The notes beneath the pieces are model-generated. The model did no database searches and was not told the DNA's origin. It saw nothing but the letters and a program-made list of their open reading frames with translations. A stretch of 64,000 nt of DNA from Desulfuromonadales bacterium (lineage in GTDB: Bacteria; Desulfobacterota; Desulfuromonadia; Desulfuromonadales; SZUA-540), in the NCBI GenBank assembly GCA_033549025.1, contig JAWSUS010000007.1:1-64000 (forward strand), read 5' to 3'. The position numbers and the translations under genes are program-made. Below are positions 42,468 through 56,792 of this stretch, piece by piece (the stretch's first letter is position 1; each line of letters begins with the position of its first letter).

Positions 42468-43910
42468 TTACTCGCCCCGCAGTTTTCGAAGGACCTCCGG
42501 ATTTTCTTCATCTTCAGCCAGAATGACATGACAGGTCATGCAGTCGCCGGAAATCGTCTGACCATCCTCGCTTTCGTGCATGTCGTCATGGCAGCGAAAG
42601 CAGCCAATATCAAAGTTTTCCCCATGCCCAATATGATTGATGTAGGTGTTCCAGGCAATATTCATGCTGGGCCAGACGTTTTGTCGGTAGGCCGCCTGGG
42701 TTCCGCGTATGGCTGTCTGCAGCCATTGGGGTTTAGACGCCAACAGGTCGGGGTATCGTTCTTTGTACCAGGTCGTCAGGCGCTCGGCGATGGCGGTTTC
42801 CGCTTCATCCTGGCTGGTGTAGCTGGCGGTGATGGCGACAAGAGCCTGCTCCTTGATGAAAGGCAATTGTCTGGGAATCGCGCCGGAGAGGAGCTTTTCA
42901 TCCAGGGCCGCCTCTGGGCTGCGATAAATGTGAGTGGGCCGATTGTGGCAATCGATACAATCCATCTCTCTTGTTTCCAGGTGTTCCGTATCTTCTTGGG
43001 TGCCTGAACGGAAAACGGTCTGGGTGCCGTCGGCCCGGGTCAGGGTGACTACCGGTATAGTCAGGCGTTTTTCGTCGGATTGATAAGTAATGGTGTTTTC
43101 AGGCGCAACGTGCCAGTGGATGCCGTGGGCATTTTCTGTCAGGTTTCCCGCCGAGCCGATTTTCATCAGCATTACCGTCTGAACGTGGGTGTTTTTGTCG
43201 TCAGCCAGGAACTTGTCGTTGACGATGAGTTTTTCGCCGTGGAACTTTTCGGGCTGATGGCATTCTTCGCAGGTTTCGCGGGCGGGGCGCAAGCCATGAA
43301 CCGGCGTCGCAATCGGACGCGGATAGGTGTCGAGAGCGACGGCGAACAACTGCCTGGCCCCGGATATTTTAGACTTCACGAACCAGGTGGCACCAGAGCC
43401 GATATGGCACTCTACACAGTTGACCCGCGAGTGGGGGGAATTTTGGTAGGCGGTATATTCCGGTTCCATGACTGTGTGGCAGAACTTGCCGCAAAAGGCA
43501 TTGGATTCGAGGTAGTGATAGCCGCTGTAGCCGAGCAGGGAAAAGATGAAAAGGTTGGCACCGGTCAGAAAGATGCCGAGAAAAATGAGTTTGCGTACGC
43601 GGGCAAACCGCGTTTCGTCCGTAAAATGTTCTTTCAGGTAATCCAGCGTAAAAAGACGGACCTCCTCTTTCCCCTTCAGGAAAAACAGGCCCACAAAGAC
43701 CATTGCCAGTCCCCCCATGAAGGCGGGCCCGAGAATCATGTAAATGATGGCCCCCATGTAGGGATTGTCAATGTGCCACAGGGAATCGATTATCACCAGT
43801 CCGAGCAGAAAAGGGAATACCGCCGTGGTGATAATGGCTCCGACCAGAGAAACTCTGCTGCGAGCTATGCCTTTAAAAAATGCATCCAGGATGTTTTTCA
43901 GGTTTCCCAT
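42468..43910 (-). CDS. Inner-membrane NapC/NirT-type multiheme cytochrome c, ImcH-like
   Basis: Three N-terminal TMs; CGKFCH, CVECH, CEECH, CIDCH, CFRCH and CMTCH; GATWFVKSKISG. Confidence 0.8.
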   Translation of the reverse strand: MGNLKNILDAFFKGIARSRVSLVGAIITTAVFPFLLGLVIIDSLWHIDNPYMGAIIYMILGPAFMGGLAMVFVGLFFLKGKEEVRLFTLDYLKEHFTDETRFARVRKLIFLGIFLTGANLFIFSLLGYSGYHYLESNAFCGKFCHTVMEPEYTAYQNSPHSRVNCVECHIGSGATWFVKSKISGARQLFAVALDTYPRPIATPVHGLRPARETCEECHQPEKFHGEKLIVNDKFLADDKNTHVQTVMLMKIGSAGNLTENAHGIHWHVAPENTITYQSDEKRLTIPVVTLTRADGTQTVFRSGTQEDTEHLETREMDCIDCHNRPTHIYRSPEAALDEKLLSGAIPRQLPFIKEQALVAITASYTSQDEAETAIAERLTTWYKERYPDLLASKPQWLQTAIRGTQAAYRQNVWPSMNIAWNTYINHIGHGENFDIGCFRCHDDMHESEDGQTISGDCMTCHVILAEDEENPEVLRKLRGE

Positions 43911-44155: not shown

Positions 44156-44377
44156 TTAAAATCCTGAAATGGCACTGAACCAACCTTGGGCGAGGCCGAT
44201 AGGGCCTCCGGCGGCGATAGCCCCCCCCACGAGACAGGCAATTCCCCAGATGCCGATCAGGGCGGCGAAGGCCAGGGTCAGAATAAAGGAGACCCTGAAG
44301 GTGATTCTCATCAAAACCAGGCCCAGTTGCGAATGAACCTTTTCTTGGACTTGAACAGCAGCCTGAACGTTGCTCAT
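44156..44377 (-). CDS. 73-aa membrane microprotein with a W-x3-C-x2-GG motif
   Basis: AAGGAG RBS; MSNVQ...LIGIWGIACLVGGAIAAGGPIGLAQGWFSAISGF. Confidence 0.75.
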   Translation of the reverse strand: MSNVQAAVQVQEKVHSQLGLVLMRITFRVSFILTLAFAALIGIWGIACLVGGAIAAGGPIGLAQGWFSAISGF

Positions 44378-44898: not shown

Positions 44899-45060
44899 AT
44901 GAAGACAGCCTATCAGGTCAGGGCAGGAAAAGCGGTAACCAATTACCTTGCTTCCGCTAGCATGATTGGACTTTCCATTGCAGTCGGACTGGCAGTTTCA
45001 AGCGCTTTGGTTGCAGCTCTTTGGGCTCCGATGACCGTAGTGTTAAGCGGTCTCTTCTAG
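44899..45060 (+). CDS. 53-aa hydrophobic microprotein (not in ORF track)
   Basis: AGGAG RBS; MKTAYQVRAGKAVTNYLASASMIGLSIAVGLAVSSALVAALWAPMTVVLSGLF; terminator follows. Confidence 0.7.
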   Translation: MKTAYQVRAGKAVTNYLASASMIGLSIAVGLAVSSALVAALWAPMTVVLSGLF

Positions 45061-45097
45061 TTTTTGTTTTAAGCGCAAAGCGGCGACTACGATATCG

Positions 45098-45130
45098 AAC
45101 CTCCCCAGGGTCTCCTGGGGAGGTTTTTTT
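45098..45130 (+). terminator. Intrinsic terminator after the 53-aa microprotein
   Basis: AACCTCCCCAGG-GTCT-CCTGGGGAGGTT plus a T-tract. Confidence 0.8.
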
Positions 45131-45505: not shown

Positions 45506-46726
45506 ATGGATCAGATGCCAAAAACCCAGAGAATGACCTTGAATGAGATTGAAAGCATTGTCTCCGGACGACTGCTTTCCGGTGGTGCCGGATATTATTT
45601 TGGCGTCATCATTTCCGCGCTACTGGTCGTGGCAGCGCTCGTAGCCGGTGTTCACTCCTTTATTGTTGGACATGAGCACACTTACGGGGTAACCAGAGAG
45701 GTGCCCTGGGGGATTCTCATTGCGACTTATGTCTTCTTTGTCGTCACTTCCACGGGACTCTGTCTCGTGTCCTCGATCGGGCATGTTTTTGGAGTCGAGT
45801 CCTACATGCCGATAGCCAAGCGGTCGGTCTTTCTCTCCATCGCGACCATTCTGGCTGGATTTTTTGTTATTGCCTTCGAAATTAAAATCCCTTGGCGGAT
45901 GGCGATTTACAATGTCATTTCTCCCAACATCACCTCCAATATCTGGTGGATGGGTACACTCTACGGGGTTTACCTTGTCCTGATGATATTTGAGTTTCTC
46001 TTCCTCAACCTGAACAAACACAAACTGGCGGTGGCCATGGGTTTCGGTGGCGCGGTTGCTGGTATCGCCGCGCACAGTAACCTCGGCGCCGTTTTTGGCC
46101 TCCTTATGGGCCGCGAGTTCTGGCACGGTCCCTACATGTCCATTTACTTCATCGCTTCGGCCATGATGACCGGTACCGCCGTAATTTTTCTTTTCCACTA
46201 TCTTGCCTACAAGGTTAACGGCGAAGACCTGAGCCTTGATGGACCGATGGTGGCCTCCCTGGATGTGGTACGTCGCCTCGGGATCCTCCTCATCTGCGTC
46301 ATCATATTCTTCACAACCTGGAAAATGGTTGCTGGTGTTGCCGGCATGCCCGGTGGCAAGTACGAAGCGGTCATGGCTCTGGTCAAAGGGCCCTACGCCA
46401 TTAACTTCTGGCTGTTTGAGGCAGGGTTCGGCCTGATCTTCCCGCTGCTCCTTTTCATTCTCTCCAAGGGTAAAAACCTGATGATGATGTTCGTTGGGTC
46501 GGCGATGATGATTGTCGGTATTTTTATCATGCGCTACGACCTGGTGATCGTCGGCCAGATTGTTCCGGTTTATCATGAGCTCGGCGTCAATGAGTTCAGC
46601 CACCTCCTGTCCTACACCCCCTCCTTCCACGAGATCATTATCACTTTGGGTGGTTTTGGGGTGGCGTTCTTTCTCTTCCTGGTGGGAGAGAAGCTCTTTG
46701 CCGGACACAAAGTCGAACATCATTGA
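45506..46726 (+). CDS. NrfD/PsrC-family quinol oxidoreductase membrane subunit (CbcU-like)
   Basis: VPWGILIATYVFF, SNIWWM and MRYDLVIVGQ motifs; about 10 TMs. Confidence 0.85.
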   Translation: MDQMPKTQRMTLNEIESIVSGRLLSGGAGYYFGVIISALLVVAALVAGVHSFIVGHEHTYGVTREVPWGILIATYVFFVVTSTGLCLVSSIGHVFGVESYMPIAKRSVFLSIATILAGFFVIAFEIKIPWRMAIYNVISPNITSNIWWMGTLYGVYLVLMIFEFLFLNLNKHKLAVAMGFGGAVAGIAAHSNLGAVFGLLMGREFWHGPYMSIYFIASAMMTGTAVIFLFHYLAYKVNGEDLSLDGPMVASLDVVRRLGILLICVIIFFTTWKMVAGVAGMPGGKYEAVMALVKGPYAINFWLFEAGFGLIFPLLLFILSKGKNLMMMFVGSAMMIVGIFIMRYDLVIVGQIVPVYHELGVNEFSHLLSYTPSFHEIIITLGGFGVAFFLFLVGEKLFAGHKVEHH

Positions 46727-46772
46727 TGAGTTTCAGGTCTACTAGCGATAAGCATTTGAAGGAGAATATAGC

Positions 46773-47528
46773 ATGAAGAAAAATAAGGTCGAATTCGACG
46801 GCTTGCAGAATGAAGGAGTGGAGAATGCTCCCGTAGAGGATCGACGTCGTTTTCTGAAAATGGGCCTTGCCCTCACCGGTGTCTTTGCCGGCGGTACCCT
46901 TTACTCCGCCACCTCGGCGGTAAACAAGGTTTATGCTTCAGCTGGCGAGTATGCCAAGAAATATCCGTACAAGCCTCATTACAGCATGATCATGCACCAG
47001 GATCGTTGTATTGACTGCGAGCGCTGCATGGCGGCTTGTGTCAAGACCAATAATGTGCCCGAGTATGGTTACCGAACGACGATCCTCGAAAGAGAAGTCA
47101 AGGATGCCGTTGGCCAAAAGCGGGAATTTATTCCCGTCCTTTGCAATCACTGCAACCTTCCCCAGTGCACCAGGGTTTGCCCGACCCGGGCTACGTATAA
47201 AGATAAAGCCACCGGCATCGTCATGATGAACGCCGCTAAATGTATCGGGTGTTTGACCTGTCAGCAAGGGTGCCCCTACAATGCGCGCTATTTCAGCGAG
47301 GAAAAACATGCGGTCGACAAATGCAATTTCTGCATCGATACGCGACTGTCCAAAGGCGAGACCCTGACGGCCTGCTCTGAAGCCTGCCCTGCTGATGTCA
47401 GGGTGTTTGGTGACCTTTCGGATCCCAATAGCCGTATTTACCGTGAGGTTCATCAGATCGAGAAAACCGTCTGGGTTCTGCGGCCTGAGGCCGGTACGCG
47501 ACCCAATGTTTTCTATACTCGCGGCTAA
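46773..47528 (+). CDS. Tat-exported NrfC/PsrB-like 4Fe-4S protein (CbcT-like)
   Basis: RRRFLK Tat motif; four Cys clusters (CIDCERC, CNHC...C...CP, CIGCLTC...CP, KCNFC...C...CP). Confidence 0.9.
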   Translation: MKKNKVEFDGLQNEGVENAPVEDRRRFLKMGLALTGVFAGGTLYSATSAVNKVYASAGEYAKKYPYKPHYSMIMHQDRCIDCERCMAACVKTNNVPEYGYRTTILEREVKDAVGQKREFIPVLCNHCNLPQCTRVCPTRATYKDKATGIVMMNAAKCIGCLTCQQGCPYNARYFSEEKHAVDKCNFCIDTRLSKGETLTACSEACPADVRVFGDLSDPNSRIYREVHQIEKTVWVLRPEAGTRPNVFYTRG

Positions 47529-47587
47529 AGACTCGAGCCTGATTCCCAAAGGCTCTGACCCCATTTGTGAATAGCGGAGGTTTAATC

Positions 47588-48229
47588 ATGAATAAGTTCA
47601 TGTTGCGCGCATTTGGCGCCATATTGTTGACGTTGTTGGCGACGGCTCCGGCCCTTTGGGCCGAGGAAGAAGATTTTGGCGGTCCGGAGATCGCCTATGA
47701 GCAGCCGGTCAAAGGGGTATCTTTCAGCCACAAAACGCATGTGGGTGACTACGGTTTCTCCTGCGACAGCTGTCATGACGGTATCTTTGACATGATGGTC
47801 GGCGCCGCCTATGAAAATGGCGACTTTACGATGGACAGCCTGTATCAGGGCAAATACTGTGGCGCCTGCCACGACGGGTCCATGGCTTTTGCCGCCAATA
47901 CCCAGTGTGCCTCCTGCCATGTGCAGGATGGTGGCGATGTTATCTATACCGAGCCGGTCAAAGGGGTTCTTTTCAGCCATGATGTTCACGGCCAGGTCGG
48001 GCTGGATTGCGCCAGTTGTCACGATGGGCTCTTTGAAATGCGCTCTCTTGCTGCCCAGGAAAATGCCAACTTTGTCATGGAGGCTCTCTACGAGGGCGAG
48101 TATTGCGGCGCCTGCCATGACGGTTCTATGGCGTTTGCCTCCGATACCCAATGTGCGACCTGTCATATTGGCGTCAAGGGATTGCGTCGCGCTACTGGTT
48201 CCGCAACAAAAGAGCAAGCCGCTCACTAA
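47588..48229 (+). CDS. Periplasmic hexaheme cytochrome c (two tandem c7-type repeats)
   Basis: Signal peptide; six CxxCH motifs in two similar halves (PVKGV.FSH...CGACHDGSMAF...TQCA.CH). Confidence 0.9.
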   Translation: MNKFMLRAFGAILLTLLATAPALWAEEEDFGGPEIAYEQPVKGVSFSHKTHVGDYGFSCDSCHDGIFDMMVGAAYENGDFTMDSLYQGKYCGACHDGSMAFAANTQCASCHVQDGGDVIYTEPVKGVLFSHDVHGQVGLDCASCHDGLFEMRSLAAQENANFVMEALYEGEYCGACHDGSMAFASDTQCATCHIGVKGLRRATGSATKEQAAH

Positions 48230-48576: not shown

Positions 48577-49911
48577 TTGCTTATGCCCAAAGTAGACCAC
48601 TGTAAACAGTTGACTGTCATATTGAACAGCGTCGCCGACGGTGTCTTCACCGTTGACGATCGTATGCGGATTACCCTTTTCAATAAGGCGGCCGAGGAAA
48701 TTACGGGGTTTACCGAAGAAGAGGCGATGGGCAGGCATTGCCATGATATTTTCCGCACGGATGTCTGCTTTACGTCCTGTCCCGTCAAGGAAGCCCTGGA
48801 ATCCGGCCAGCCCGTTATAAACCGCGAAGTTGATATCATCACGAAGGAGGGGAAGAAGGTCCCCATCTCGATCAGTGCCTCGGTGCTGAAGGATGAAAAT
48901 GGTAAGCCTCTCGGCGGTGTGGAAACCTTTCGGGACCAATCCCTTATCTACGCCCTCAAAAAAGAGATAGAAGAAAAATACACCTTTCATGATCTGGTCA
49001 GTCGCAATCCCGCTATGCGACGTCTTTTCGATGTGCTGCCCGATATTGCCTCCAGTGAAGCGACCGTGTTGCTAAAAGGAGAAAGCGGGACCGGAAAAGA
49101 ACTTTTTGCGCAGGCCATTCATGATTTAAGTCCCAGGCGCAAGGGGCCTTTGGTCATTGTCAATTGTGGGGCTCTGCCCGAGCCTCTTCTTGAGGCTGAA
49201 ATATTCGGGGCCCGGCGAGGAGCCTATACCGGGTCCATCGAAAATCGCCCAGGACGCCTGGAGATGGCGGAGGGAGGCACTCTTTTTCTTGATGAAATTG
49301 GCGATCTGCCTCTCCCTTTGCAGGTTAAGCTGCTGCGGGTCCTCGAGAACCATGAATATCAGCCCCTGGGAGCGAGAAGCCCACAGAAGGCCGATGTCCG
49401 TTTTCTCACGGCGACAAACTGCGACCTCGAAGATATGGTTGAAAAAGGAACTTTCCGCCGGGACCTGTTTTTTCGCATCAATGTAGTGGCTTTGCAGATT
49501 CCGCCTCTACGTGAGCGTCCGGAGGATATTCCTTTATTGATCGATGTTTTCCTTGACCGTTTTAATCGGACCTACGGGAAGAAGATCAGGGGATTTTCTG
49601 GAGAGGCACTCCAGCTTTTACTTAGTCATCAATATCCCGGCAACGTCCGGGAGTTGCTTAATCTTGTGGAGCAGACGGTTATCCTCTGTCGGAGCGGAGA
49701 AATTGGCGTTGAACATCTTCCGGCCGGTTTCCTTGAGGCCAGCGACCGTGATGAAGATGTCAGCTTCGGGAGACGAAGTCGGATCAATAAAGCCATTCTT
49801 CAAGATCTGCTTGCCCGCTACGAGGGGAACCGGACCAAGGTGGCCAAGGAATTGGGAGTGGATCGAACCACCTTGTGGCGATGGATGAAAAAATTTGATT
49901 TAAGTAGCTAG
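48577..49911 (+). CDS. PAS-domain sigma54-dependent activator, OrpR-like
   Basis: PAS with C-x8-C-x3-C; GESGTGKE; GAYTGS loop; FLDEIG; PGNVREL; C-terminal HTH (LGVDRTTLWR). Confidence 0.9.
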   Translation: MLMPKVDHCKQLTVILNSVADGVFTVDDRMRITLFNKAAEEITGFTEEEAMGRHCHDIFRTDVCFTSCPVKEALESGQPVINREVDIITKEGKKVPISISASVLKDENGKPLGGVETFRDQSLIYALKKEIEEKYTFHDLVSRNPAMRRLFDVLPDIASSEATVLLKGESGTGKELFAQAIHDLSPRRKGPLVIVNCGALPEPLLEAEIFGARRGAYTGSIENRPGRLEMAEGGTLFLDEIGDLPLPLQVKLLRVLENHEYQPLGARSPQKADVRFLTATNCDLEDMVEKGTFRRDLFFRINVVALQIPPLRERPEDIPLLIDVFLDRFNRTYGKKIRGFSGEALQLLLSHQYPGNVRELLNLVEQTVILCRSGEIGVEHLPAGFLEASDRDEDVSFGRRSRINKAILQDLLARYEGNRTKVAKELGVDRTTLWRWMKKFDLSS

Positions 49912-49934
49912 ACTTTCAAGCCAAACAAAAAAAT

Positions 49935-49972
49935 AGAGCGCGTCTTCCTTTCAGGAAGACGCGCTTTTTTTT
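49935..49972 (+). terminator. Intrinsic terminator after the activator gene
   Basis: AGCGCGTCTTCCT-TTC-AGGAAGACGCGCT plus a T-tract. Confidence 0.8.
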
Positions 49973-49986
49973 ATGTCTGGCGGGTG

Positions 49987-50128
49987 TGCAACAATCCTGT
50001 TGCAGTCATTTGGCGTTGCATTAAGCAACATGTTGCAAATATGTTGCAACGATAGACTGTGGCGCTAAAAGGGCCCTTGCCGAGGGTCTGGACAATTGCA
50101 GGATGCATCAGTGTTGCAGGGCGCAACA
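49987..50128. promoter_or_regulatory. Cluster of YGTTGC-N5-GCAACA palindromes (putative upstream activator sites)
   Basis: CGTTGCATTAAGCAACA at 50014-50030, TGTTGCAGGGCGCAACA at 50112-50128, and extra TGTTGCA half-sites. Confidence 0.6.
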
Positions 50129-50225
50129 TGAGGGTTGAGTTAAATTCTGAGTCAAGCAAGAGATTAGCCAATGTAAGTCCCCGAATACACTATAAAAAAT
50201 CAAATAAATTTATAAAAACTGTTTT

Positions 50226-50241
50226 TGGCACAACTCTTGGA
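50226..50241 (+). promoter_or_regulatory. Putative sigma54 promoter (-12 variant)
   Basis: TGGCACAACTCTTGGA versus consensus TGGCACG-N4-TTGCW; correct spacing. Confidence 0.6.
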
Positions 50242-50279
50242 ATACTAGAGATCAAACAACAGCGGCACGGAGATAAGCC

Positions 50280-50639
50280 ATGGGAAGTCAAAATCTTAGA
50301 ACGAAATCGGGTGAAAAAATAGCAGTGCCCTACTACGGAGCCCTGGTAAGACCTAAATCTGGCTTTGAGAGTCTCTATCTTGTTGCAGATGTTGCAGCAG
50401 GAACAACTACAGCGTTGCAATTTGAGGTTTGCGTCTGGGATAAAAACAGGCGACCTAAAATAGCCGAGTGGTTGCAAGAGATAGGGGTAAAAGGCGTAAT
50501 TTGCAGCGACGAAAAAGTGGAAATGGAAGAACTTTTGGCCTGTGAAGGGATCTGGTTGGAAAAAGGCAAAATGGGAGATGCTACAGACCTGGTAGCCATG
50601 TATGTCAACAGTATTAATAGCATCGGAAACATTAACTAA
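50280..50639 (+). CDS. Divergent NifX/ORP-fold-like protein, paralog 1
   Basis: GGAG RBS; KIAVP start and WLQEIGVKGVIC...LACEGI pattern; paralog of 51712..52092. Confidence 0.6.
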   Translation: MGSQNLRTKSGEKIAVPYYGALVRPKSGFESLYLVADVAAGTTTALQFEVCVWDKNRRPKIAEWLQEIGVKGVICSDEKVEMEELLACEGIWLEKGKMGDATDLVAMYVNSINSIGNIN

Positions 50640-50658
50640 CAGCAAAGGAAGGTGTCTT

Positions 50659-50802
50659 ATGAGAGTCGAAAACAGCAAAAGCAAGCCGGTAAGTGACAAG
50701 TATCTTCGAAACACTCTGATGGCCATGGGCGTGGTCGCACTGTCTGCCAGCCTTTACGTAGCTTGGCCAGCCCTGGTCCATCTGGGCAGTAAAATGATTT
50801 AA
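50659..50802 (+). CDS. 47-aa membrane microprotein (Trp36 family)
   Basis: AAGGAAGG RBS; MRVENSKSKPVSDKYLRNTLMAMGVVALSASLYVAWPALVHLGSKMI. Confidence 0.75.
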   Translation: MRVENSKSKPVSDKYLRNTLMAMGVVALSASLYVAWPALVHLGSKMI

Positions 50803-50853
50803 GACGATCATTCAAAAAGCATTTAAAAAAACCTTTAAAAAACGGAGGACATT

Positions 50854-51015
50854 ATGAGAACCGAGAATCTTATCACTGATCCGATCAAAGCCACCTACAA
50901 ATATGGCGTCTATAGTGCAATGGGCTTCGTTGGACTCAGTCTTGCGGCCTTTATCGCTTGGTCCTTTACCTGCGCCGGCGGTGCCTTGGTCGAAGTGATT
51001 GGCAAAATGGTGTAG
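50854..51015 (+). CDS. 53-aa membrane microprotein (Trp36 family)
   Basis: GGAGG RBS; MRTENLITDPIKATYKYGVYSAMGFVGLSLAAFIAWSFTCAGGALVEVIGKMV. Confidence 0.85.
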   Translation: MRTENLITDPIKATYKYGVYSAMGFVGLSLAAFIAWSFTCAGGALVEVIGKMV

Positions 51016-51049
51016 CAGATCAAATAAACTTACAGGATAGGAGGCAGCT

Positions 51050-51211
51050 ATGAAAACCGAAAACATTATAAGTGAACCCATCAAAACAACGTATAAGGTT
51101 GGCGTTTACAGTTCTGTGGCCTTTGTAGGTATTTTCCTGGCAGCCTTCATATCCTGGTCTTTCTGCTGTGCGGGCGGCGCTATTATCGAAGGATTGAGCA
51201 AGCTGATTTAA
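51050..51211 (+). CDS. 53-aa membrane microprotein (Trp36 family)
   Basis: GGAGG RBS; MKTENIISEPIKTTYKVGVYSSVAFVGIFLAAFISWSFCCAGGAIIEGLSKLI; 33/53 identical to the previous ORF by hand count. Confidence 0.85.
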   Translation: MKTENIISEPIKTTYKVGVYSSVAFVGIFLAAFISWSFCCAGGAIIEGLSKLI

Positions 51212-51252
51212 GAGGGTAGAAAAAAGTTTAAGAGAACGACAGAAAGGGGGCG

Positions 51253-51414
51253 GTGATGATGTTGTACACAGGTAATAAACCAATAGGTTTGGGAGCTGGT
51301 ATTGGAATGCTTGCCGCGCTTGTGTTCATAGGGTTTATCACCTCCCTCTTTCTGCTGTGGTCGGTGTCCTGTATTGGTGGGGGCGCAATTGTCCTGGCGG
51401 GTGGATTTTGCTGA
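51253..51414 (+). CDS. 52-53-aa membrane microprotein (Trp36 family)
   Basis: AAAGGGGG RBS; GTG 51253 or ATG 51256; (M)MMLYTGNKPIGLGAGIGMLAALVFIGFITSLFLLWSVSCIGGGAIVLAGGFC. Confidence 0.75.
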   Translation: MMMLYTGNKPIGLGAGIGMLAALVFIGFITSLFLLWSVSCIGGGAIVLAGGFC

Positions 51415-51447
51415 GAATGCTTTAGGGCGTGTAGCGCCAGCGGCGGG

Positions 51448-51570
51448 TGTTGCAAAAAACAAGCAATGCATCAATTGTTGCACTTAAGTGAAACGCTTAA
51501 GTGGCCCATCTGCAAATAAAAACAAGATGGCCAGCCGCGTAGACTCATACGACATGTTGCAAATGTAACG
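51448..51570. promoter_or_regulatory. Second cluster of TGTTGCA-type activator sites
   Basis: TGTTGC at 51448 and 51476; TGTTGCAAATGTAACG at 51555-51570. Confidence 0.5.
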
Positions 51571-51663
51571 TCTGAAATTGGCCATATTTAAAGCGTCATA
51601 AGAAACAAGAGTCTAAGTAGCCGAAATCAAATCGGAATAAGAATTGGAAGAAATCTTAACTTA

Positions 51664-51679
51664 TGGCATGACTTTTGGA
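51664..51679 (+). promoter_or_regulatory. Putative sigma54 promoter (-12 variant)
   Basis: TGGCATGACTTTTGGA; same spacing and same TTGGA variant as at 50226. Confidence 0.6.
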
Positions 51680-51711
51680 GTAGGTGAGAGACGGTAGAAA
51701 AGAGGGGGTCT

Positions 51712-52092
51712 ATGAGAGCTGAAAATAGTGTAACCAAGCCCCTTTCAGGTGTTTATAGACACTTGTTGGAAAAAGACGAGTGCAATCGAATCGCCATCCC
51801 CTACTACGGCGCCATCATGAGGCCGGGGGTAGGTGTCGAGAAGCTTTATTTTATTGCGGATGTTGACAAGAAAAACTCATCTTTGAAGCGCGTGTTTCTG
51901 GAGGTATGGAATTCGAAGATTTCACCAGAACTCCCAAGCTGGTTACGTGATAAGGGTGTGAGTGGGCTGGTCTGCCGGGATGGTTGTCAGAGTTATCTTC
52001 AGCCGATGGAAGCAGCTGGAATCAAAGTGCTGTTGGACAAGGCCCTTGATCTTGCCTGGATTGAAGGTATGGCTACAACATCACGAAGATAG
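51712..52092 (+). CDS. Divergent NifX/ORP-fold-like protein, paralog 2, with an N-terminal extension
   Basis: RIAIPYYGAIMRP...VW...WLRDKGVSGLVC...AAGIKV aligns with 50280..50639. Confidence 0.65.
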   Translation: MRAENSVTKPLSGVYRHLLEKDECNRIAIPYYGAIMRPGVGVEKLYFIADVDKKNSSLKRVFLEVWNSKISPELPSWLRDKGVSGLVCRDGCQSYLQPMEAAGIKVLLDKALDLAWIEGMATTSRR

Positions 52093-52141
52093 AGTGCTGG
52101 TTAACCAAAGATGAATGTTATTGAGCAAGAGGTGGAACGAC

Positions 52142-52573
52142 GTGAGGATCGCCATTACAGCCAGAGGGTCCCACCCTTCCAGTGAAGTTGACGAATGTTT
52201 TGGACGGGCCTATTGGGTTTTGATTTTTGAGACCAAAACCGGAAATTATACGGCAATCAATAATTCAGAAATTCGAAATTCCCAGGAAAATGCGGGAGTC
52301 AAAGCGGCAAAACTGCTTGAGAATAAGAAGGTCGATGTATTGTTGACTGGGGAAACTGGCCCGAAAGCTTTCAGATCCTTGGTCGAAAAGGGAATAAAGG
52401 TGTTCCATGGAGCGTCTGGTTCAGTCGAGGAGGCCTTGAACACCTGGCTCAGAGGGGAGATGAAAGAGGCTGAACACGCCAATAGCCCAGGTAGTCCTTA
52501 TTGCCTGGTTGTTCAATCAAAAACAACGCAGGTCGATGCACCTAAGGTTCTGCTTGACCTGCTGAAGACATAG
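52142..52573 (+). CDS. NifB/NifX-family (orange protein/MTH1175-like) cofactor-binding protein
   Basis: RIAITA...VDECFGRA...AGVKAA...VLLTGETGPKAF...GIKV; GTG start after GAGG. Confidence 0.85.
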   Translation: MRIAITARGSHPSSEVDECFGRAYWVLIFETKTGNYTAINNSEIRNSQENAGVKAAKLLENKKVDVLLTGETGPKAFRSLVEKGIKVFHGASGSVEEALNTWLRGEMKEAEHANSPGSPYCLVVQSKTTQVDAPKVLLDLLKT

Positions 52574-52622
52574 AAAGGTTTTTCCGCCGCATTCCCAAAA
52601 GGCGGAAACCATGGAGGTGAAT

Positions 52623-52784
52623 ATGAAAAAACACCAAAAATTCTTTAAGGTCCTGAATTCATTTTACAGAATCGGTTTATACAATATTGTCGCGGCCATG
52701 GTTGTGTGGTGCTCGATTTTTGTCATCTGGTCGATTGTCAACTTTGTCGTGACCTCAAAAGTGGGCACGGGTGTTTTTATTTAA
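52623..52784 (+). CDS. 53-aa membrane microprotein (Trp36 family)
   Basis: GGAGGTG RBS; MKKHQKFFKVLNSFYRIGLYNIVAAMVVWCSIFVIWSIVNFVVTSKVGTGVFI. Confidence 0.8.
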   Translation: MKKHQKFFKVLNSFYRIGLYNIVAAMVVWCSIFVIWSIVNFVVTSKVGTGVFI

Positions 52785-52810
52785 GTTCATTGAATATTGA
52801 GGTTATTTGA

Positions 52811-52972
52811 ATGAAAACACAGTTCGTTCTTCCCATTGAAATCAGGCACGTTTTTAAAATCGGCCTTTTCATCGTTATATCAATGATTGGGCTTGCCGTG
52901 TCTGTCTTCATTCTTTGGGCGGTTTTTTGTATGGGGAGCGCCTGCATTCAGGTGCTGGCCACTGGCCATTAG
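52811..52972 (+). CDS. 53-aa membrane microprotein (Trp36 family)
   Basis: GAGG RBS; MKTQFVLPIEIRHVFKIGLFIVISMIGLAVSVFILWAVFCMGSACIQVLATGH. Confidence 0.8.
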   Translation: MKTQFVLPIEIRHVFKIGLFIVISMIGLAVSVFILWAVFCMGSACIQVLATGH

Positions 52973-53087
52973 CCGACTGTGCTCTTTGGTAAATAAAGAG
53001 GCTGATCAGGAAATTAGGCAATAGTAAAGAGACCTGGCTTCTCGATTCGATAAGTTGATCTCTAAATTTTTTGTGCTAAATGATGAA

Positions 53088-53855
53088 ATGAACCACTTAT
53101 CCGGACCTATAGATTTTTGGACCACGGATTTATTCCAGAGTAATAAATCAGCGGACAGTGTTCCTGGAAACGAATGTCCATGTTGCGGATCCATTAAAAT
53201 TTATGCTCTGGGTGATGGCCGGAAAAAATGTGGGATTTGTGGGAAAAAGTTCAGTCAAACTGCCAGAAAAAGGCGAATTTCCAAGGTTCTGTTAAGGCAG
53301 GTGGTTGAGCAGTTCGTTGCCATGGTGCCGGCAAAGCAGGCCGCTGGAGTTGTTGGGGTAAATCATAAAACGGCCCTAAGGGTTTACAGGGATATACGGA
53401 GGGCTCTGGTCCGAAAAAATCAGCAATTGGCCCTCCGGTATATGGAGGAATGTCAGTCGACGACAGATATTTTCGCCTGTAGCCCTGGAGAGGAGACTCT
53501 TCCGTTATTTGCTGTGGCAATTCAGAACCAGAAAATAGTGCTCTTACCTGCTCGATACCAAGGGTCGTGGATCAAGGTTCATTTCCCTGCTTCGGTAATT
53601 TATGCTGATCGCATGACAGCGATGACCCTTGATTTTGAAAACTTTGATCAAAAAACGCTTGGAAGCCACGCGGCATCATGGCCTGTAAAACCCTGGTTTT
53701 TTTGGCCTTATGCCAAGGAGCAATTCAAGATTTATCACGGCGGAATGAAGGTCAACTTTTGGCTTTTTTTGCACGAAATGGCCTTTCGATTCAATTTTTC
53801 CCTTTCTGGCGATCAAGAGGAGGGCATCATCGATGACCTTGTCGCCTGTTTATAG
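53088..53855 (+). CDS. IS1595-family transposase-derived protein, catalytically degenerate
   Basis: Zn ribbon CPCC...CGIC, HTH-like segment, VIYAD, and FW..AK...YHG...FLHEMAFRFN. The start codon is uncertain. Confidence 0.65.
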   Translation: MNHLSGPIDFWTTDLFQSNKSADSVPGNECPCCGSIKIYALGDGRKKCGICGKKFSQTARKRRISKVLLRQVVEQFVAMVPAKQAAGVVGVNHKTALRVYRDIRRALVRKNQQLALRYMEECQSTTDIFACSPGEETLPLFAVAIQNQKIVLLPARYQGSWIKVHFPASVIYADRMTAMTLDFENFDQKTLGSHAASWPVKPWFFWPYAKEQFKIYHGGMKVNFWLFLHEMAFRFNFSLSGDQEEGIIDDLVACL

Positions 53856-53909
53856 AAAGACCGTTTTAAACGGTCATGTGTTTTTCACTTTTAATGGAGG
53901 AGCGATGAA

Positions 53910-55748
53910 ATGAAGTTCTGCCGAATTCTCACTGTAGTTCTTGGTGTTTGGCTACTGGGTGCTGCTGTTCCTGCCCTGGCCAAAATGGCCCCCGATCCGA
54001 ATGCCTGTCTTCAGTGTCATGAAGATGTGGTATCAGCCGCCGAATTTATGGATTCGGTCCACGGGAAAAATGCCTGTACAAGCTGCCATGTAGAAGTTAC
54101 TGATCTGGATGAGCACTTGGCAGGGAATATTGAAATCAGCCCTGTAAATTGCGCGACCTGTCATTCCAATGAGGATAAAGCCCACGTTGACAGCGTGCAT
54201 GCCGAAAGCGGTATCGGCTGTGTTGAGTGCCACTCGGACATTCATGGCCAGCAAAAAATGGATAGTTCCAAAGTGGCCTTGGTGGAAAAATGCAGTGAGT
54301 GCCACGATGTCGAAAGCTATGTCCAGTCAAGCCATGGTATGGCCATTGCGGCCGGTAAAAATGATTCCGCCGCCTGTAACGATTGTCATGGTGTTCACAA
54401 CATAGCCAGGGTTCCGGACCCGGACACTGCAGAAGGTGGCGCCTTCAAATCAGCACCCTGTATTGCATGCCATGCTGATGAAGAAAAGATGGAGCATGCC
54501 GGGGTCAATGCCCATGCGGTAGAAACTTACCTCGAAAGTTACCATGGAAAGAATTACCGCCTTGGTTTTCCTCAGCAATCCGCCGGCTGCGCCGATTGCC
54601 ACAGTAGTCATGGTGTTCTGCCGCCTAGTCATGCTGAATCAACCATTGGCGAGGCGAAGATCGTCGAAACCTGTGCCACCTGCCATCCTAAAGCCACATC
54701 GCAATTTACCAAATTTTATGCACATGGCGATCATGGCGATCGGGAAAATTACCCGATCATGTATTACACCTTTATCAGTATGACGGGTCTTCTGGTCGGA
54801 ACGTTCGCCGTCTTCTGGATTCACACCCTCCTGTGGATGTTCCGCGGTTTTGTTGAAAACAGACAAAAGGCAGCCGCTCTAGCTGCGGGACACGAAGAAC
54901 ATCATATCTCCGAAGCCCACAAACAATATCGACGGTTTGAAAAACGTCATATTTTCCTGCACCTTACCGTAATAATCAGCTTCCTCGGGCTGTCCCTTAC
55001 CGGTTTGCCTCTGAAATTTGCTGATCAGCCTTGGGCCCAAACCATGATGTCGTTCTTTGGTGGGGTCCATTATGCTGGCCTTATTCATCGAGGGTGCGCG
55101 ATCCTGACCTTCTATTATTTCGTCGGCGCCATCCTGATGAGCATCGACTTCCTGTTTGTTCGCAAGGACATTAAAGCTCATCCCTTTGTCAGGCTGTTCG
55201 GCCCGGACTCTTTGATGCCAAACTTCCGGGATGTCCGCGATGTGACCGCGATGGTGCGCTGGTTCTTTTTCAAAGGGCCCAAGCCGACTTTTGAGCGGTG
55301 GACTTACTGGGAAAAATTCGATTTCCTCGCGGTCTTTTGGGGTATGTTTGCCATCGGCGGTTCCGGTCTGTTGCTGTGGTTTCCGGAAATTTTCGGCACC
55401 TTCCTGCCGGGCTGGATGTTCAACGTGGCGACCATCATACATTCCGATGAAGCGCTGTTGGCCACCGGGTTTATTTTTACTGTTCACTTCTTCAACACCC
55501 ATGGCCGTCCCGAAAAGTTCCCCATGGATTTTGTAATCTTCAATGGGCAAATGTCCAAAGAGGAATTTGTTGAAGAGCGTGGCGATCAATGGAAGCGTTA
55601 CGAAGAGGAAGGTACGACGGAGAATTACGTTGTCACCAAACCCAGCGGGGTGTTGTATGACTTCTTCTTCAAAGGATTTGGTTTCCTCGCCTTCTTCACG
55701 GGAATCACCCTGGCCATCCTGATGCTCTACGCATTTATCAGCGGATAG
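53910..55748 (+). CDS. cbcL: CbcL-type inner-membrane c/b cytochrome (9-heme c domain plus cytochrome b domain)
   Basis: Nine CxxCH motifs, then TM helices with LTGLPLKF, YWEKFDFLAVFWG, IIHSDEALLA and VHFFN. Confidence 0.85.
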   Translation: MKFCRILTVVLGVWLLGAAVPALAKMAPDPNACLQCHEDVVSAAEFMDSVHGKNACTSCHVEVTDLDEHLAGNIEISPVNCATCHSNEDKAHVDSVHAESGIGCVECHSDIHGQQKMDSSKVALVEKCSECHDVESYVQSSHGMAIAAGKNDSAACNDCHGVHNIARVPDPDTAEGGAFKSAPCIACHADEEKMEHAGVNAHAVETYLESYHGKNYRLGFPQQSAGCADCHSSHGVLPPSHAESTIGEAKIVETCATCHPKATSQFTKFYAHGDHGDRENYPIMYYTFISMTGLLVGTFAVFWIHTLLWMFRGFVENRQKAAALAAGHEEHHISEAHKQYRRFEKRHIFLHLTVIISFLGLSLTGLPLKFADQPWAQTMMSFFGGVHYAGLIHRGCAILTFYYFVGAILMSIDFLFVRKDIKAHPFVRLFGPDSLMPNFRDVRDVTAMVRWFFFKGPKPTFERWTYWEKFDFLAVFWGMFAIGGSGLLLWFPEIFGTFLPGWMFNVATIIHSDEALLATGFIFTVHFFNTHGRPEKFPMDFVIFNGQMSKEEFVEERGDQWKRYEEEGTTENYVVTKPSGVLYDFFFKGFGFLAFFTGITLAILMLYAFISG

Positions 55749-56050: not shown

Positions 56051-56722
56051 TCAGTATCCTTTGTGGAATAGCCTTTTAAGAGCCGGTGTGACGACTTTCC
56101 GGAGCCACAGCATTAACCAGCCAAGCGGTGTCCCTTTAAGACGTATTTCATCGAGCAGTATTTGTTTTTCCGATAGGGCATGCTGGTCATTAGGGTTGAT
56201 GGCCAGCGCTTTATCGAGGTAGGTTAGGGCTTCCTCCTCCCGACGCAGCCGGGAAAGAGAAACCCCCTTGTTCCGGATGGCATGGGTATTTTCCGGCTCG
56301 ATATCTAAAACGCGATCGAAGCACTGAAGGGCCAGATCGTCCATCATCAGTTTGGATAGGCAGACGCCCTTCTGGCCTAAGGCAGTCACGTTTTTATCGT
56401 TCAGTTGCAGGGCCCTGTCCAGCATGGCAATGGATTCCCTGACGCGCGCCAAAATAGAGAGAACGACCCCGTAATTGGCAAACAGAAAATCCGCTGCCGG
56501 GGCTTTTTCAACGGCCTCCGCCAGCAGTTTCTCGCCCTGCTTTAAATCCCCTTCCAGGCAAAAGGCTTCCCCCTCAAAAAACAGGGCAAATCCTACATCG
56601 CCATTGTCTCGGGCTTCTTTGGCTACCTGCCGAGACAGAGCGATGGCGTCATCAGAACTGGTTTCTTCCAGGTCGGCAATCTGTTGGAATGCCTCAAAGT
56701 ATTTCTGAATGTCCTGAGCCAT
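56051..56722 (-). CDS. TPR-repeat protein
   Basis: Repeated A...KG..LS.L...AL...D.AL...P pattern; AAAGGAAAGG RBS. Confidence 0.8.
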   Translation of the reverse strand: MAQDIQKYFEAFQQIADLEETSSDDAIALSRQVAKEARDNGDVGFALFFEGEAFCLEGDLKQGEKLLAEAVEKAPAADFLFANYGVVLSILARVRESIAMLDRALQLNDKNVTALGQKGVCLSKLMMDDLALQCFDRVLDIEPENTHAIRNKGVSLSRLRREEEALTYLDKALAINPNDQHALSEKQILLDEIRLKGTPLGWLMLWLRKVVTPALKRLFHKGY

Positions 56723-56792
56723 GGTATGCCTTTCCTTTCGGTAGGTTGGTGGACAAGCTCGATGATAGCAAATCAAGTGTTAGGCTCAAACC

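Follow-up and report, generated by a model that had tools for sequence, protein, structure and literature searches.

Candidate small subunits of CbcL-type menaquinol oxidases: an undescribed family of membrane microproteins in Desulfuromonadia

We analyzed a 64,000-nt stretch of the genome of a Desulfuromonadales bacterium (assembly GCA_033549025.1, contig JAWSUS010000007.1, positions 1 to 64,000 of the forward strand; hereafter, the window), in which six short open reading frames (ORFs), m1 to m6, form an array on the + strand. Judged from their sequences, the six ORFs are real genes under selection, and they belong to no described family. The reading that we favor, with a probability of roughly 0.6, is that these microproteins are CydX-like accessory subunits of menaquinol-oxidizing cytochromes, spanning the inner membrane once with the N-terminus inside; the evidence for a partner, a predicted complex with the cytochrome CbcL, concerns m1 and not m2 to m6 or the additional member m7. 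An earlier note on this DNA had listed single-pass subunits or modulators of the adjacent quinol-oxidizing cytochromes among several possibilities, and the predicted docking, the conservation of the docking face, and the proximity to cytochrome genes make this likely.

Results

A predicted docking face on CbcL

The gene m1 (50659..50802, +) encodes a 47-aa microprotein of type A, the most widespread type, with a W-P-A-L-x-H tail, and is the predicted partner of the CbcL-like bc-type menaquinol oxidase encoded at 53910..55748 (+). The modeling of complexes with CbcL that the earlier note had recommended favored this pairing. One complex, comprising CbcL residues 270–612, two hemes, m3, and m1 as the partner, was predicted from own alignments together with three controls. 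The m1–CbcL scores were 0.72, 0.72, and 0.68, and all three controls scored 0.00; of 157 solved complexes, 116 attained the score mark, as did 2 of 215 mismatched pairs, and these counts apply only roughly to m1–CbcL. The m1–CbcL runs had at least 81% of contacts in common and a partner pLDDT (predicted local distance difference test) of at least 72. In the predicted contact, residues 16–45 of m1 lie on residues 346–350 and 382–413 of CbcL. A search of PDB sequences turned up no solved structure, whether of the CbcL membrane domain or of a microprotein of the family, that the model could have reproduced. Pairing of types A and B alone scored 0.00 in the control replacing CbcL, which is no evidence against such pairing. 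At least one microprotein thus probably docks on CbcL as a missing small subunit, as far as the model goes, and may change the on/off switching of the enzyme. His393, invariant on helix 388–413, is likely a heme b ligand, and we consider it fairly probable that type A peptides bind this helix and stabilize or tune the heme b domain.

Over the 23 interface columns, entropy was 0.39 bits in 16 CbcLs linked to the microprotein cassette and 1.21 bits in 21 others; over the whole membrane domain, the values were 0.51 and 0.61 bits. Forty further genomes, selected by presence of the family before the residues were inspected, provided an out-of-sample comparison. Residue 395 was Gly or Ala in all 20 genomes with the family; among the 20 without it, Gly was never found and Ala occurred three times. 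Residue 402 was aromatic in 19/20 vs. 2/20 genomes, and at least three of five signature residues were present in 17/20 vs. 0/20. The Gly/Ala395–Tyr402 groove is filled by bulky residues in CbcLs of genomes that lack the family. It also occurs, across the tree, in CbcLs with Val205 when genes of type A′ are present, and it is absent from G205, a member of genome family f18 without microproteins. Because the Val205-type CbcLs of A′ genomes keep the groove, its presence tracks the peptide rather than the gate at residue 205.

The array encodes real genes

The remaining array members are the type B1 genes m2 (50854..51015, +; 53 aa, with W-S-x-x-C-x-G-G) and m3 (51050..51211, +; 162 nt, 62% identity with m2, modeled as a single helix over residues 9–52 with pLDDT 84), the type B2 gene m4 (51253..51414, +; 162 nt), the type C gene m5 (52623..52784, +; 162 nt, no Cys40, C-terminus x-F-I), and the type B3 gene m6 (52811..52972, +; 162 nt). 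A purine-rich stretch resembling a ribosome-binding site (RBS) precedes each of the six + strand ORFs, so that the positions and RBSs reported by the earlier note agree with the window sequence. The lengths that it gave (five ORFs of 162 nt and 53 aa, one of 47 aa) fit the coordinates, except that m4 reaches 53 aa only with a GTG start that abuts its Shine-Dalgarno sequence; an ATG at 51256 or 51259, which gives 52 or 51 aa, is the likelier start. An ungapped alignment recovered the recurring residues that had been listed, namely W36 and F/Y33 in all six peptides, Y/F15 and G18 in five, and P10, G27, and C40-x-G in four. The peptides, said to align without gaps, do so except that the tail of m1 requires a 6-residue gap after W36. 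Every array peptide contains one strongly hydrophobic 19-mer (Kyte-Doolittle value, 1.75–2.81).

Searched against the genome in six frames (60,193 segments), a profile built from other genera only (22 rows) ranked the six ORFs as the top matches, with E from 3e-23 to 0.01 (next segment, E 1.1). Relative to genome G001, the six ORFs carry 99 synonymous and 40 nonsynonymous changes (omega 0.081), so that the dN/dS check proposed in the earlier note came out in favor of the genes; in the comparison with G002, m6 (off register) and the concatenate were discarded. These two results argue that the six ORFs are not chance. The m1 protein is identical in three genomes, with 0 nonsynonymous vs. 14 (G001) and 17 synonymous changes. 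The gene m5 came first in a search with a profile of the type C genes of G010 and G018 (E 1.8e-5). The array is not wholly hidden, as it had been called, given that NCBI "hypothetical protein" records occur in 4 of the 10 homologue clusters inspected. Contigs from four metatranscriptome runs (two studies) overlap parts of m1 to m4, and none covers 50010–50310; strand, level, and RNA origin are not deducible from these contigs, and no ranking was drawn from them.

A divergent, type-A-like seventh member, m7 (44899..45060, +; 53 aa, Trp42, own RBS), had been overlooked in the count of six. It lies between the gene of an ImcH-like NapC/NrfH multiheme cytochrome (42468..43910, −) and a Cbc4-like set of NrfD, 4Fe-4S, and c7 cytochrome genes (45506..48229, +), and is followed by a terminator-like hairpin at 45097–45126. 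The gene is kept in G001 and G002 and, within the local set, matches A-type genes adjoining multiheme genes (G018, E 5e-5; G024, E 3e-4). No sigma54 site was found upstream of m7, imcH, or nrfD. Upstream of imcH there is also a conserved 73-aa membrane ORF (44156–44377, −) with an RBS, a W-x3-C-x2-G-G stretch, and five unnamed or hypothetical homologues. We considered it as a further family member and rejected it, homology not being established by an hhalign probability of only 19%.

Distribution, anatomy, and subtypes

The family consists of single-pass membrane proteins of approximately 46–68 aa, found only in class Desulfuromonadia, where 65 of 301 genomes carry it. Matches to type A (m1) occurred in 66 genomes, or 65 without G073, which was excluded from counts as a false match together with G113 and G294. 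Strong matches to type B (m2, m3, m4, and m6) were found in 26 genomes of the class (31 at E ≤ 0.001, minus three cross-matches of type A′ and two long ORFs). All 26 also have type A, which is homologous to type B (hhalign 96%, E 2.8e-9). In genome family f29, a Geobacter-like group, 2 of 69 genomes have a true member; six further matches lay in long ORFs. GSU3409 and GSU3410, considered as possible named members, could not be confirmed and were dropped, given these 2/69 true matches. Among 351 genomes of the phylum, the only four carriers lay within the class. A profile search of all proteins gave 17 matches, of which 14 were short and family-like and three were long repeats that we dropped. 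The search for profile matches and synteny in relatives that had been suggested recovered both family and cassette, within the one class and with many loci lacking a NifX-like gene.

No library or structure match names the family, as the earlier note had supposed. Pfam (E ≤ 0.1; 44 A-type and 40 B-type members) and NCBIfam (44 A-type members and the six window peptides) returned no family of the CydX, CcoQ, or PetG type, and a match of one member to cytochrome b559 beta (E 0.046) was at chance level. The family had no match in PHROGs, PDB sequences, or Rfam, and Foldseek gave 0 structural matches. The best VIA-align Z was 5.7, to unrelated long helices, and the Atlas returned solely unnamed clusters, all under 0.9. 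No description was found in the open-access literature, including passages of PMC6295460, PMC8235581, PMC6246609, PMC12133095, and PMC11972089; the accessions tried were absent from three supplements of PMC11972089.

Across 84 A and B members, approximately three Lys/Arg precede the hydrophobic stretch and fewer than one follow it, which suggests an N-in topology. The Trp position holds W in 78 members and Y in six, and a second aromatic residue usually lies 21 residues upstream; these two positions would mark the two faces of the bilayer, and Trp36 is probably a membrane-boundary anchor. Small residues line the helix, the monomer is modeled as a single helix, and the tail past the Trp is amphipathic (moment, 0.37–0.39). 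The strict length and register that had been regarded as a special signal thus mostly reflect, in our view, membrane thickness and a short, constant N-terminus, and longer members (55–68 aa) exist. Cys at W+4 occurs in 32 of 40 B-type members and in none of the A-type, C-type, or g64 B members. It is therefore not family-wide, which, with the many loci lacking a NifX-like gene, speaks against the proposal of Cys-bearing partners of cofactor carriers. His occupies W+5 in 25 of 44 A-type members (Tyr in eight, Trp in four), and the B type has no conserved His, so that the invariant helix His of light-harvesting alpha/beta or b559-type proteins is lacking. There is no lipobox (W-S-x-x precedes the Cys instead of L-A/S-G/A), and, as regards Flp or type IV pilins, no conserved acidic residue in the hydrophobic stretch and no Pfam pilin match. 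No type I toxin (Hok/Gef, Ldr, Ibs) was matched in Pfam or PHROGs, and Rfam gave nothing at E ≤ 0.1 over 49900–53950; an undescribed antisense RNA is possible.

The microproteins had been suggested to be interchangeable, and the subtype data contradict this. The order found in the window, A, B1, B2, C, B3, recurs in the five genes that each of two genomes of other families, G010 (f8) and G018 (f16), carries. In a tree of 52 sequences, m4 grouped with both third genes (support 96), m5 with both fourth genes (83), and m6 with the fifth gene of G018 (91), and m1 likewise clusters with its counterparts in position; the fifth gene of G010 was unresolved in this tree, whose resolution is limited by the short sequences. 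On this evidence, the peptides are not interchangeable but represent five old subtypes whose order has been kept across three families. Genome family f18 has A′–A′ pairs divergent from imcH and further dispersed copies (two to four per genome). Pair copies of the same genome share 95–99.7% identity (87% for one pair), whereas those of different genomes, even at matching loci, share 66–82%. This pattern indicates concerted evolution and suggests that dose matters. The A′-pair copies at loci L128–L133, L143, and L144 share an identical, near-consensus sigma70 promoter and an AT-rich inverted repeat; at L131, two copies flank one gene, which we take to be HipA-like.

Genomic context and regulation

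The cassette comprises, in order, a sigma54 promoter, a gene X of NifX fold, the microprotein genes, an IS1595-derived gene, and cbcL, with a PAS-sigma54 activator nearby. In the window, these are the activator (48577..49911, +), X1, a divergent NifX/MTH1175-fold protein (50280..50639, +), its paralogue X2 (51712..52092, +; 40% identity over 65 aa), a canonical Nitro_FeMo-Co (NifX-like) protein (52115..52573, +; PF02579, E 3e-21), and, directly upstream of cbcL, an IS1595/IS1-derived protein (53055..53855, +) with a zinc ribbon and a helix-turn-helix (HTH) and without a conserved acidic triad, which is likely a domesticated transposase. Such a gene precedes cbcL in nearly all cassettes (25–33% identity across families) and often overlaps the cbcL start. 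Of 89 family loci, imperfectly de-duplicated and chosen by score, 53 have a gene for a respiratory cytochrome no more than 1.4 kb away; among those with full flanks the count is 31 of 49, and for random places the share is 4.8%. Type A alone persists directly upstream of cbcL after loss of X, B, and the IS-derived gene in five genomes (G202, G054, G033, G047, and G254). The X subfamily occurs in 29 genomes, including all 26 with type B. At L083–L087, X directly precedes an NrfD/Cbc4-like operon behind the same promoter type, and the fetched stretches hold no family gene; X may therefore serve Fe-S or NrfD assembly by itself. No diverged family member was found at 19 cbcL loci of genomes without matches. 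In several such genomes a two-helix membrane protein of approximately 75 aa adjoins cbcL (L188:5796-6029, L194:3071-3394, L203:552-773, L205:7633-7866; also L019:11097-11390).

Two putative sigma54 promoters with GTTGCA/TGCAAC activator words lie at 49998..50241 (+; site 50226) and 51448..51679 (+; site 51664), both with the non-canonical −12 element TTGGA. A sigma54-like site was present upstream of 37 of 42 units tested. In 33 upstream regions (four of them of X-only units; near-duplicates and one short region excluded), the −12 element was non-canonical in 32 and TTGGA in 21, and the activator words occurred 166 times vs. 13.7 in shuffles (maximum, 27 in 200 shuffles). The use of TTGGA, TTGTA, or TTGAT rather than TTGC at −12, almost without exception, is conserved in two orders. 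Of the 487 sigma54-like sites in the window genome, just 3 come with at least three activator words, among them those at 50226 and 51664; the third (G000:C13:41148, −) lies beside another activator and before chemotaxis-like genes. Stand-alone B–A pairs retain promoter and words.

The motif C-x8-C-x3-C is present in 13 of 13 cassette-neighboring activators. At eight loci (L018, L080, L082, L089, L090, L092, L096, and L097) a two-PAS activator stands after cbcL and before a TPR gene like that at 56051-56776 of the window; in the five two-PAS activators checked, each PAS domain has the Cys motif. In OrpR of the Desulfovibrio vulgaris Orp system, C52, C61, and C65 are iron-sulfur (Fe-S) ligands and the protein is active at low potential (PMC8359166). 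By the shared spacing, the window activator would bind an Fe-S cluster and activate at low potential. The Orp system likewise combines a PAS-AAA+-HTH activator with sigma54 operons that contain NifX-fold genes (PMC8359166). It differs in its binding site, GGGCGYRTTTTGCGCCC, from the repeated GTTGCA/TGCAAC words of the window, and the OrpR palindrome is not the word enriched in the 33 upstream regions; moreover, the window cassette has the non-canonical −12 element and no Mrp/MinD ATPases, and its targets are membrane microproteins and cbcL.

CbcL subtypes and the gate residue

In CbcL, replacement of Val205 by Ala or Gly, or of Phe525 by Tyr, abolishes potential-dependent shut-off, and His, Gly, or Ala at 205 has already been noted in a few species (bioRxiv 10.1101/2022.08.31.506072). 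In a 619-aa CbcL (L196), position 205 is Val and position 525 is Phe, so that our numbering fits the published gate residues. The window CbcL is a 9-heme bc-type enzyme with Phe at the 525-equivalent site, like the self-gated Geobacter sulfurreducens CbcL (GSU0274); it differs in having His202 at the site of Val205, a sigma54 cassette rather than constitutive expression, and the Gly395/Tyr402 groove. When a family gene lies directly upstream of cbcL, the gate site is Val in 0 of 32 and Ile in one; otherwise, it is Val in 42 of 46 and Ile in four (one contig-end copy with Thr excluded). The microprotein family is inherited together with one CbcL subtype. The 16 cassette-linked and 21 other CbcLs are separated by a 100/100 branch that crosses orders, and a scan for residues fixed between the groups returned the gate site and sites 153 and 185 only. 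Because Gly and Ala gate cases also fall on the cassette side, the contrast amounts to one event and not to 78 observations.

Discussion

Several observations weigh against the microproteins as CbcL subunits. Matches to CbcL occurred in 248 of 301 genomes and matches to the family in approximately 65, so that no microprotein is an obligate subunit, and CbcL does without them in most relatives. On both CbcL trees, the difference at Val205 comes down to one split; groove and family may have been lost together just a few times, and kin are not independent. Two genomes (G039 and G025) have the groove without a family match, and one (G161) has a family match with an eroded groove. Three others (G008, G060, and G015) carry the family without a CbcL match, its genes lying in Cbc4-like or imcH clusters, so that CbcL is not the sole partner, and 36 of 89 loci are away from cytochrome genes. 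The input alignment of the model consisted mostly of cassette CbcLs, and the construct, 270-612, is without the c-heme domain and residue 202. In a related strain, two RNA contigs have an m4 that lacks 14 nt just past the Cys codon.

The peptides could instead be structural, oligomerizing among themselves as A/B pairs or rings and shaping or filling a respiratory membrane, for example an intracytoplasmic one, without a specific enzyme partner. Tandem B and A pairs that carry a promoter of their own and lie far from cytochrome genes (L078, L079, L091, and L093), the constant company of type B by type A, the amphipathic tail, and the dispersed f18 copies, whose identities bear the mark of dosage selection, agree with this. 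It leaves the matching conserved groove and the CbcL docking score unexplained, and 67 of 69 genomes of the Geobacter-like family f29 gave no member; intracytoplasmic membranes have been reported for G. sulfurreducens (PMC10082016). We hold this reading to be quite unlikely. Slightly less probable still, in our judgment, is a role in cofactor delivery or signaling instead of at the cytochromes, with the peptides as membrane tethers or feedback regulators of the activator, the IS-derived protein, or one of the NifX-fold proteins (X1, X2, and NifX). The co-occurrence of X with type B, the X-A-B units without cbcL (L028, L051, and L052), and the positively charged stretch of the first 15 residues, which should face the cytoplasm, fit a tether; approximately 39 genomes, however, have type A and no strong type B match, many loci lack X, three genomes (G193, G196, and G210) have X and no family gene in the fetched stretches, and the Cys, absent from several types, is predicted to be periplasmic, away from X.

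That co-regulated redox-stress or type I toxin-like peptides are hitch-hiking on the cassette, unlinked to cytochromes, seems highly improbable. Multi-copy small hydrophobic ORFs, many stand-alone loci, a patchy occurrence, and the spread of the cassette across orders would be expected of them, but toxin and RNA family searches were negative, the genes recur inside cytochrome operons of different kinds, and the groove co-varies with the family.

As accessory subunits of menaquinol-oxidizing cytochromes, the peptides would act as follows. Low potential would switch on the Fe-S activator, and sigma54 would transcribe X, the peptides, and probably cbcL; the gene order and the overlapping IS-derived and cbcL frames in relatives make this co-transcription probable, with a hairpin at 53859 as a caveat. 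The small-residue face of m1 is predicted to pack on CbcL helix 388–413 through the groove, and the bound peptide would steady either the heme b domain or its active state. Transcription and the peptides may have taken over control from the gate within the enzyme in cassette CbcLs, which lack Val205. Types B and C and m7 could, more tentatively, serve further CbcL sites or ImcH and Cbc4-like complexes, with dispersed, homogenized copies supplying the dose for several complexes. A bolder extension, in which five peptide types under a redox-sensing activator dock on CbcL, ImcH, and a Cbc4-like complex, set the electron route, and replace the Val205 gate, is doubtful; if it were true, the CbcL of the Geobacter model would be a derived form without subunits.

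Small single-pass subunits of respiratory complexes have precedents in CydX, CydH, CcoQ, and PetN (PMC12648545). CydX/CydH of cytochrome bd, CioY, CcoQ/CcoS of cbb3, and PetG/PetN of b6f resemble the window family in size, in their one helix, in being encoded beside their complex, and in being dispensable in some lineages (PMC12648545). The window peptides are likewise short single-pass proteins encoded with a respiratory complex, and m1 is predicted to pack against the membrane subunit that carries heme in a quinol oxidizer. They differ in having no sequence match to these subunits, in a predicted N-in orientation (CcoQ and CcoS are N-out; PMC12648545), and in their expansion to five subtypes and dispersed, homogenized copies. 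Family genes adjoin cbcL, imcH, and NrfD-type genes, and no linkage to cydAB, ccoNOP, or pet was seen. The literature covered describes no small subunit for CbcL, and the available text of bioRxiv 10.1101/2022.08.31.506072 mentions neither a small partner nor a cassette. In the same phylum, HmcD is a single-pass protein of approximately 47 aa encoded in the NrfD/multiheme hmc operon of Desulfovibrio; the scanned members gave no NCBIfam or Pfam match that would connect them with it, and the window family was not seen outside its class in the 351 genomes.

Our results bear on the open question of how bacteria that respire metals or electrodes select ImcH, CbcL, or Cbc complexes according to redox potential, and on CbcL shut-off, whose mechanism is unexplained (bioRxiv 10.1101/2022.08.31.506072). 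They offer a candidate for a missing subunit and the face on which it would dock (Gly395/Tyr402), together with a natural CbcL subtype without Val205 and its likely regulator and promoter. Heterologous expression of CbcL homologues in G. sulfurreducens has been proposed (bioRxiv 10.1101/2022.08.31.506072); homologues from cassettes may need their 47-aa partner there.

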